Positions 6,393-7,066 of a stretch of DNA of 64,000 bases are shown here, one piece after another. Under the pieces are notes generated by a model, which saw only the letters and a list, made by a program, of their open reading frames with translations, ran no database searches and was not told the DNA's origin. The stretch's first letter is position 1, and each line of letters opens with the position of its first letter. Both the position numbers and the translations under genes were made by a program. Source of the DNA: Octopus vulgaris (Eukaryota); assembly GCA_951406725.2 (NCBI GenBank), contig OX597816.1:102362001-102426000 (forward strand), read 5' to 3'.

Positions 6393-7066
6393 CTTTACAC
6401 ATCACATCACATATGATGTGCCATACTAATACACACACCAACTAATACATACTAATACGTACTAATACATACTAGTACATACTAATACTTACACCAACCC
6501 TATACATACACACGTCCAGACCCCGCATACGCACTTATACTCTCTCTCACACACACACACACACCTATACATACCAATACGTACTAATACATACTAATAC
6601 ATACTAATACATACACCAACCCCATACATACGCACGTCCAGACCAATCTTACGCACTAATACTCTCTCATACACACACACACACACACACACCCTTATAC
6701 ATACTAATACATACACCAACCCTATACATACACACATCCAGACCCCTCCCACGCACTTTTAGCTGGTCCCTCAACCCATTTATCAACCCTATTATCTCCC
6801 CTTATTTCGCTCTCGCGTCTCATGTTTGATCTTTGACCTCTGGCCGAAATCAGATCGCCATGTTGATTCGTTAGCTACTGCACGCATTTTTTTTCTCTCC
6901 TTCTTTCTGTGTTTTTCTCTCTCTGTGTATCTTTCTGTTGAAGAGCGTAGGCTCGAAACGTTAAAGACTTGTTTTATTTATATTTCCTGAGCGCCATACT
7001 AATACAATTGTTCGTTTGTTTTCCACCTGCCTTCGTCTTTTGTTTATTTTCATAAAGCTTCCCGTT
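6393..7066 (+). mobile_element. PLE 3' UTR/pLTR with three CA-rich internal repeats
   Basis: acaccaacc.(c/t)atacatac.cac.tccagacc repeated at about 6491, 6613 and 6713; ends at (TA)n. Confidence 0.7.
6930..6967 (+). ncRNA. Minimal type I hammerhead ribozyme-like motif (CUGUUGA core)
   Basis: Stem I TCTTT/AAAGA, core CTGTTGA+A, stem II GAGC-GTAG-GCTC, GAAA, palindromic ACGT, GUU site. Confidence 0.65.

Follow-up and report, generated by a model that had tools for sequence, protein, structure and literature searches.

Why should the source copies of a retrotransposon family spread a hammerhead motif that departs from the canonical core at a single position, and does such a motif still cut? The question is raised by a motif at 6930..6967 on the plus strand of the 64,000-nt stretch of Octopus vulgaris DNA analyzed here (the window), which satisfies the canonical hammerhead core (C3 U4 G5 A6 N7 G8 A9, G12 A13 A14 A15.1) except for A6, its place being taken by U. 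Its assignment as a minimal type I hammerhead motif draws on the sequence itself, on a sample of genomic copies chosen by a downstream anchor and on covariation among relatives. Stem I pairs 6930-34 with 6963-67; the core has C3 at 6935, U6 at 6938, N7 at 6939 and G8 at 6940, with an extra A at 6942; stem II pairs 6943-46 with 6951-54 and precedes G12 at 6955; and the 3' part comprises a palindromic ACGU at 6958-61, H17 at 6962 and the predicted cut at 6962/6963.

Motifs in the window

An earlier note on this DNA had described the motif as one of four dispersed members of a family, three of them with U6, and a re-reading of the sequence bears this out: the core reads CTGTTGA at 6935-6941 and 8679-8685, CTGTGGA at 63085-63091 and, on the minus strand, CTTCTGA at 56702-56696. 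All four motifs have the stem I CTTT/AAAG, a single extra A after A9 and GAGC-GTAG-(G/A)CTC, and GAAA/ACGT is lost, as had been stated, in the 8675 copy alone. The motif at 8674..8711 (+), in which ACTC costs stem II one pair, belongs to a short, decayed copy (~8660-8800) from the oldest subfamily group. That at 63080..63117 (+) has G7 and U17, and the short copy around it (~63000-63208) is a member of an intermediate subfamily. The motif at 56670..56707 (-), its core altered at positions 5 and 6, sits in another short copy from the oldest group (~56575-56708), one that begins at stem I. The deviations of the 8674..8711 and 56670..56707 copies look like decay. The 6930 motif folds no better than shuffled sequences (z -1.06), Rfam covariance models gave no match on 6760-7060 at E values up to 10, and a whole-window Rfam search has no hammerhead family among the 150 listed of 411 matches.

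The window also holds a canonical A6 minimal hammerhead at 51821-51860 (-), beside a PLE-like ORF fragment (51788-52204). Its family, used as an unrelated control, has 2,616 exact genomic matches, and among the first 100 listed all but two have A6 (by eye). By core match, hammerhead-like motifs with canonical CTGANGA cores lie at 61427-61456 (+) and 8124-8160 (+). Fragments of other retroelements are a GIY-YIG-like frame with a CNC motif at 28365-28853 (-), which we take to be Naiad-like; a reverse transcriptase (RT) piece at 58548-58829 with 39% identity to the U6 family; and a non-LTR RT piece at 31241-31639 (+).

The host element

The proposed attribution of the motif to a Penelope-like element (PLE) holds: the 6930 motif lies ~830 nt downstream of a frame encoding an RT and a GIY-YIG endonuclease, and long copies elsewhere flank the ORF with the motif. 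The local copy (4942..7066, +), of Neptune/Nematis type, is truncated at its 5' end and belongs to the youngest subfamily. It sits in (TA)n, with TA repeats on both sides, and is 98% identical to a long copy over 2,149 nt. It retains the C-terminal part of the ORF (4938..6100, +), i.e., the RT end, the thumb, a CX4CX2C linker (5712-5738) and the GIY-YIG endonuclease, with one in-frame stop (5256-5258). In a long copy RVT_1 is detected above the cut-off (E 1.5e-7) and GIY-YIG below it (E 0.005) with its motifs visible, and homologues of the ORF carry PF00078 and PF01541. With its single ORF combining RT and C-terminal GIY-YIG, its partial tandems of the pLTR kind and its 5'-truncated copies, the element is an EN+ Penelope-like element. 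It has a CxxC inside the nuclease core in addition to the linker, and the linker places it in the Neptune or Nematis clade by the definition given in the Craig et al. preprint.

The motif stands on both sides of the ORF in 16 of 20 long copies, at a spacing of 4.38-4.57 kb and with a 5' extension of variable length. The family is young and has been active recently: the best 150 genomic matches to the RT piece are 98-100% identical, many of them in open frames of >1,000 codons. After the motif comes a tail of ~100 nt (6968..7066, +) that reaches the 3' end of the insertions, which is fixed ~105 nt past the predicted cut, abuts (TA)n and is the same in long and short copies. In tandem copies the tail sequence runs on into the 5' UTR, and its end would then represent an internal start of reverse transcription.

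Position 6 across the genome

The 2.8-Gb assembly carrying the window contains 17,870 exact matches to the 22-mer from G8 to U16.1, with none to the reversed control: the motif is far more abundant than chance allows. The earlier note had called for a genome-wide tabulation of position 6, and over 16,332 exact matches of core plus 22-mer this gives U in 15,730 (96.3%), A in 180 (1.1%) and C or G in 422 (2.6%), the last class comprising 87 C and 13 G among the first 100 listed (by eye). The genome-wide majority is thus U6, and not the A6 on which the earlier note had said its proposal would fail. All four letters occur among genomic copies at position 7. A sample blind to the motif, chosen by an anchor ~60-70 nt downstream of the cut, yields the same picture: with 24 of 98 copies excluded as truncated or gapped, the 74 full motifs divide into 72 U6 and 2 A6, and A9a is present in 74/74, U16.1 in 73/74, and A or U at position 17 in 72/74. 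Four other run sets list no alternative letter at position 6, N7 variation being likewise unlisted there.

The further proposal that U6 was present in the active masters is upheld by two observations. U6 occurs at both ends in 54 of 54 two-ended copies (59 loci examined, from 20 long copies and 40 further loci, 5 being without a pair), and each of the six subfamilies has U6 as its majority state.

Ancestry of the U6 core

Motifs were sought in 80 related loci from metagenome contigs, using a plus-strand scan that allowed one core mismatch. This gave 23 motifs in 20 of the 80 loci, all with A6. Under looser criteria, 4 of 30 mostly closer loci yielded 6 further clean motifs, again all A6 (by eye). 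The closest A6 relatives (55-57% protein identity) have the tetraloop stem II design in common with the octopus family. In a quick tree of 88 proteins the U6 family nests with an A6 element (support 96), other A6 elements falling outside; the relatives in the tree come from Acropora, Chiloscyllium, molluscs and sea urchin, and the one named shark protein falls elsewhere. Because the relatives are all A6 and the U6 family nests among them, U6 reads on this tree as the derived state and A6 as the ancestral one. Two of the related metagenome-contig elements, L358 and L376, bear the known U3-A8 core variant.

Stem covariation, another check that had been proposed, is present at one depth and absent at the other. 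Between species, both partners have changed in 7 of 10 pairs, in a set of nine aligned motifs of equal stem II and loop length with 93% of cells paired, and the covariation score was reached in 0 of 500 shuffles. Within the family the stems are invariant; the 100 listed of 784 matches examined for stem II covariation inside the genome are mostly single changes or other repeats.

Selection on the motif

A tree of 205 end-repeat copies, built with position 6 masked, resolves into six groups, their boundaries set by eye along a ladder, with median divergences of 9%, 6%, 6%, 3%, 4% and 0%, i.e., generally falling. Between successive subfamily majority states, 0 of 34 motif sites changed as against 40 of 96 flank sites (Fisher p 5e-7); in the 95 anchor-containing copies, with the anchor columns dropped, the contrast is 0/34 against 38/77 (p 3e-8). 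N7 changed four times and N17 three times, only between A and U, and these are the sole variable sites of the block, an outcome with a chance of 0.024 even when the number of free sites is put at six. Both are positions that a hammerhead leaves free. The constancy of U6 is not significant alone, 56 of the 96 flank sites being also unchanged. The letters of loop II, free in most hammerheads, are invariant too, which a DNA- or protein-binding role would account for equally well.

A6 copies are scattered, with only one of the six groups lacking them, in the manner that later mutations would produce. The oldest subfamily has A6 in 8 and C6 in 11 of the first 100 of 841 listed (by eye), an A6 excess over the expectation from 9% divergence, and an A6 source probably persisted there as an ancestral remnant.

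How the element RNA is copied

Of 151 copies that reach the 5' UTR start, ~95 of the 100 listed were examined; one of 96 rows was ambiguous and seven ran off the fetched DNA, leaving 88 resolved. None of the 88 long copies has its 5' end at the cut, the nearest being at +18 and -17, although with 1.3 ends expected within 10 nt of the cut and 0 seen (p 0.26) this comparison has little power, and an RNA that was cut and then re-ligated would look no different in the copies. Among short copies, a loose pattern for ends at the cut gave 398 matches against 487 for its control, and 13 of 16 fetched candidates were pieces of the family, none running into the 5' UTR; with a tighter pattern of 304 matches, starts at the cut (~7 of 100 listed) did not outnumber those at -7, +8, +14 or +17 (by eye). 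Insertions read across the cut site, either once or twice, and extend from 113 to >1,900 nt past the first motif. As every motif-bearing copy has the cut site intact, the template would have been either uncut or re-ligated.

A different position does recur. Five independent junctions fall exactly 97 nt before the predicted cut (L403, L404, L407, L445 and L421), equivalent to 6866 (+) in the window copy. Four rows sharing this start have p ~9e-4, corrected for 1,390 positions, and the L421 array is the fifth instance. Each is joined to a different internal end (+347, +371, ~+395, +412 and +1022) with at most 1 base of overlap, and we read -97 as a defined RNA 5' end, probably the transcription start, joined by template jumping or ligation. 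It is not exclusive, other short units returning to -71 or to -164 to -184, and short copies have no sharp peak at -97. An initial reading of 8/88 ends at -91 to -97 as one cluster was reduced to the four rows at -97 plus L421, with the removal of L420 (a segmental duplicate of L404), L394 (a nested older copy) and L451 (ambiguous). L404 and L420 form a 3-kb stretch with flanks, 97% identical on two contigs, which is a segmental duplication or an assembly duplicate. A type III fold cutting near -97 was also considered and rejected: it would cut one base upstream, and on inspection the older subfamilies do not conserve it. Just upstream of the probable RNA start, CGCCATGTT at 6856-6864 resembles a YY1 site, and CGCCATG of this region recurs in older subfamilies.

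End repeats within an insertion differ by 0.54 substitutions, as against 4.27 between insertions (13 loci, 3 left out), which fits RNA circles and read-through alike. A strand-transfer test places 31 of 290 end differences in -97 to +102, without enrichment (53 loci, one chimera excluded), and strand transfer between unlike end repeats is thus not supported; the long copy L099 is a chimera of a youngest-subfamily 5' end repeat and an older-subfamily 3' end repeat.

Alongside the full elements occur ORF-less mini-units of 445-617 nt (L421, L476, L403, L404, L407, L445, L400 and L394), which combine the end repeat with the 5' UTR, carry as many as five U6 motifs in tandem and look like newborn retrozymes of a living parent. 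In L421 (G000:C8:18.60 Mb) a 492-nt unit is repeated at five motifs, and the known allele of the last segment differs from that of the four internal ones (one locus, one site). RNA-like contig sets have similar return joints from ~+371 and +396. None of the sequence sets that contain the family is registered as RNA, which bears on expression in neither direction.

A possible throttled ribozyme and its alternatives

The reading that we tentatively favor, at somewhat less than even confidence, is that the motif is a throttled ribozyme, assisted by protein, and that the RNA bearing it is copied without being cut. U6 in the source copies would likely throttle self-cutting, and the element RNA would likely be copied uncut while selection keeps the remaining hammerhead. 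If transcription starts 97 nt upstream of the cut, the capped leader would be lost whenever the RNA was cut there, and cleavage at the downstream copy would part the RT start site, ~105 nt past the cut, from the ORF; slow cutting would be favored on both counts. The substitution is predicted to act in two ways, by disturbing the U-turn and by forming a U6-A15.1 pair in a monomer rod, inactive, in which the dimer-forming ACGU would be concealed. By folding prediction, the monomer rod of natural copies has a stability of 10.2 kcal/mol (U6/U7) against 7.8 kcal/mol (A6/U7), a difference of ~2.4, though the effect is only 0.2-0.6 kcal/mol in the A7, C7 or G7 subfamilies. Residual cleavage would need the dimer and the element's own protein, as described for the lizard Poseidon hammerhead, and would touch only a small share of the RNA.

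A close rival, held only somewhat less likely, is that nothing is cut at all, the fold being kept as a structural signal (ACGU dimerization or a protein site) and the U6 knock-out having spread as a better template or message. PLE minimal hammerheads are weak even with A6, and mutants of the CUGA turn are low in activity, from which it follows that U6 may mean no cleavage whatsoever. The pattern of conservation would be equal, as the fold needs the same positions, and the cut site is read through in the copies. Single CUGA mutants are low in activity (PMC9901934), and in one fast hammerhead A6C brings a rate of 0.3 per min down to 3.55e-6 per min in 0.3 mM Mg (PMC7151607); furthermore, catalytic mutants insert in vitro regardless (PMC11167929). 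On the other hand, N17 moved only between A and U, in keeping with the rules of cleavage, though in only three changes; C3, G5, G8 and G12 are all retained; and natural A6C variants keep detectable activity (PMC3088659). A binding role of the whole fold is further weakened by the insertion of PAc RNA without the C3/G8 region, a +20 5' truncation being active (PMC11167929). The throttled ribozyme and the non-catalytic fold are not separable by sequence alone.

It is less likely, to our judgment, that CUGUNGA is a working core that would cut only as an RT-bound dimer, with the PLEs of unrelated animals having converged on it as a protein-gated switch by which the RNA stays intact up to particle assembly. 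More improbable still is a fully working U6 core (as a dimer with the element protein or another metal), the RNA being cut at either end and closed by ligation into circles that are copied round into partial tandems. The likeness of the ends within an insertion, the extensions past the first motif and the repeated unit of L421 would all accord with circles, and A6C reaches near-normal rates in Mn (PMC7151607). Against this, the recurrent junction lies 97 nt upstream of the cut and not at it, a single circle does not predict the L421 allele difference (that being one site at one locus), short copies starting at the cut are not in excess among those listed, and homogeneous tandems that are read through would make the ends just as alike.

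We give very little credence to a 36-nt block kept for a reason other than its fold (an internal promoter or splice acceptor) or persisting as a dead relic, for despite its place ~65-100 nt downstream of the probable RNA start, the AG-free pyrimidine tract of ~60 nt before the core AAG and the want of within-family covariation, only N7 and N17 vary, the flanks changed at 42-49% of sites while the block did not drift, and the stems covary between species. A splice acceptor at the core AAG was looked for separately in four RNA-like contig sets, which hold no GT..AG joint, a weak result as they consist of contigs only.

The family is a natural experiment, in which a core change expected to cripple cutting has persisted in the source copies across six subfamilies and no fewer than 15,730 insertions with the rest of the motif under selection. 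Should the U6 motif cut, the core rule would have to admit an exception under protein assistance, and searches built on an obligatory CUGA would miss whole families; should it not, a ribozyme fold would have been kept for a non-catalytic job. The bench test is simple, since the motif has 38 nt and natural A6 copies as well as an A6 family exist in the same genome.

Comparison with known systems

The element type, the place of the motif, the extra A and the palindrome are already known. In Cervera and De la Pena 2014 (PMC4209133), minimal PLE hammerheads are weak even as dimers, and the extra A and palindromic ACGT are normal for the class, which leaves only U6 as unusual. The min-HHRs of metazoan PLE pLTRs described there resemble the octopus motif in standing in both end repeats, in the short stem I, the extra nucleotide after A9, G10.1-C11.1, the palindromic 15-16 that replaces stem III and the predicted dimer, and in the majority of copies being solo and truncated. 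The octopus family differs in its family-wide U6, U3-A8 being the sole core variant named in that text, and in a stem II of 4 bp against the 7-8 bp of the Schistosoma example; a term search of the supplement for CUGU returned no core match. In the literature searched we did not find an A6U hammerhead core in print, though Lunse et al. 2017, the largest such survey, could contain one. The role of the hammerhead in PLEs is still described as unsettled (PMC8557442, a preprint; PMC11167929).

The natural pyrimidine at position 6 has a counterpart in the A6C hammerhead of phage Bcep176, reported by Perreault et al. 2011 (PMC3088659) and Naghdi et al. 2020 (PMC7151607), with reduced activity in Mg. 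By the same accounts A6C lowers but does not abolish cleavage in Mg and is rescued by Mn, and the mutational scan of PMC9901934 finds changes in the CUGA turn low in activity except for the C3-G8 swap. The phage case concerns C and not U, at a single locus, whereas here a minimal dimer-type motif is carried in >15,000 retroelement copies.

A closer parallel in mode of life is PAc, the Poseidon element of the lizard Anolis carolinensis (Frangieh et al. 2024, PMC11167929), the hammerhead of which cuts only with the element protein and the catalytic mutants of which insert normally in vitro, no RNA reads ending at the cut. Both are tandem PLEs with AT-rich targets and a fixed internal 3' end past the hammerhead, and in both uncut RNA would serve as template, without ends at the cut site. 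PAc belongs to the Poseidon clade and has a hammerhead that extends over the start of the ORF and cleaves in the presence of protein, whereas the octopus element has a zinc linker and a putative hammerhead, with the motif ~700 nt before the likely start codon. Finally, the short ORF-less tandems with one hammerhead per unit, as in L421, L476, L403 and L407, recall the non-LTR retrozymes presented in Li et al. (bioRxiv 10.64898/2026.07.22.740005), as PLE derivatives. The octopus units differ in being rare, in bearing U6 and in matching a living parent element almost exactly.
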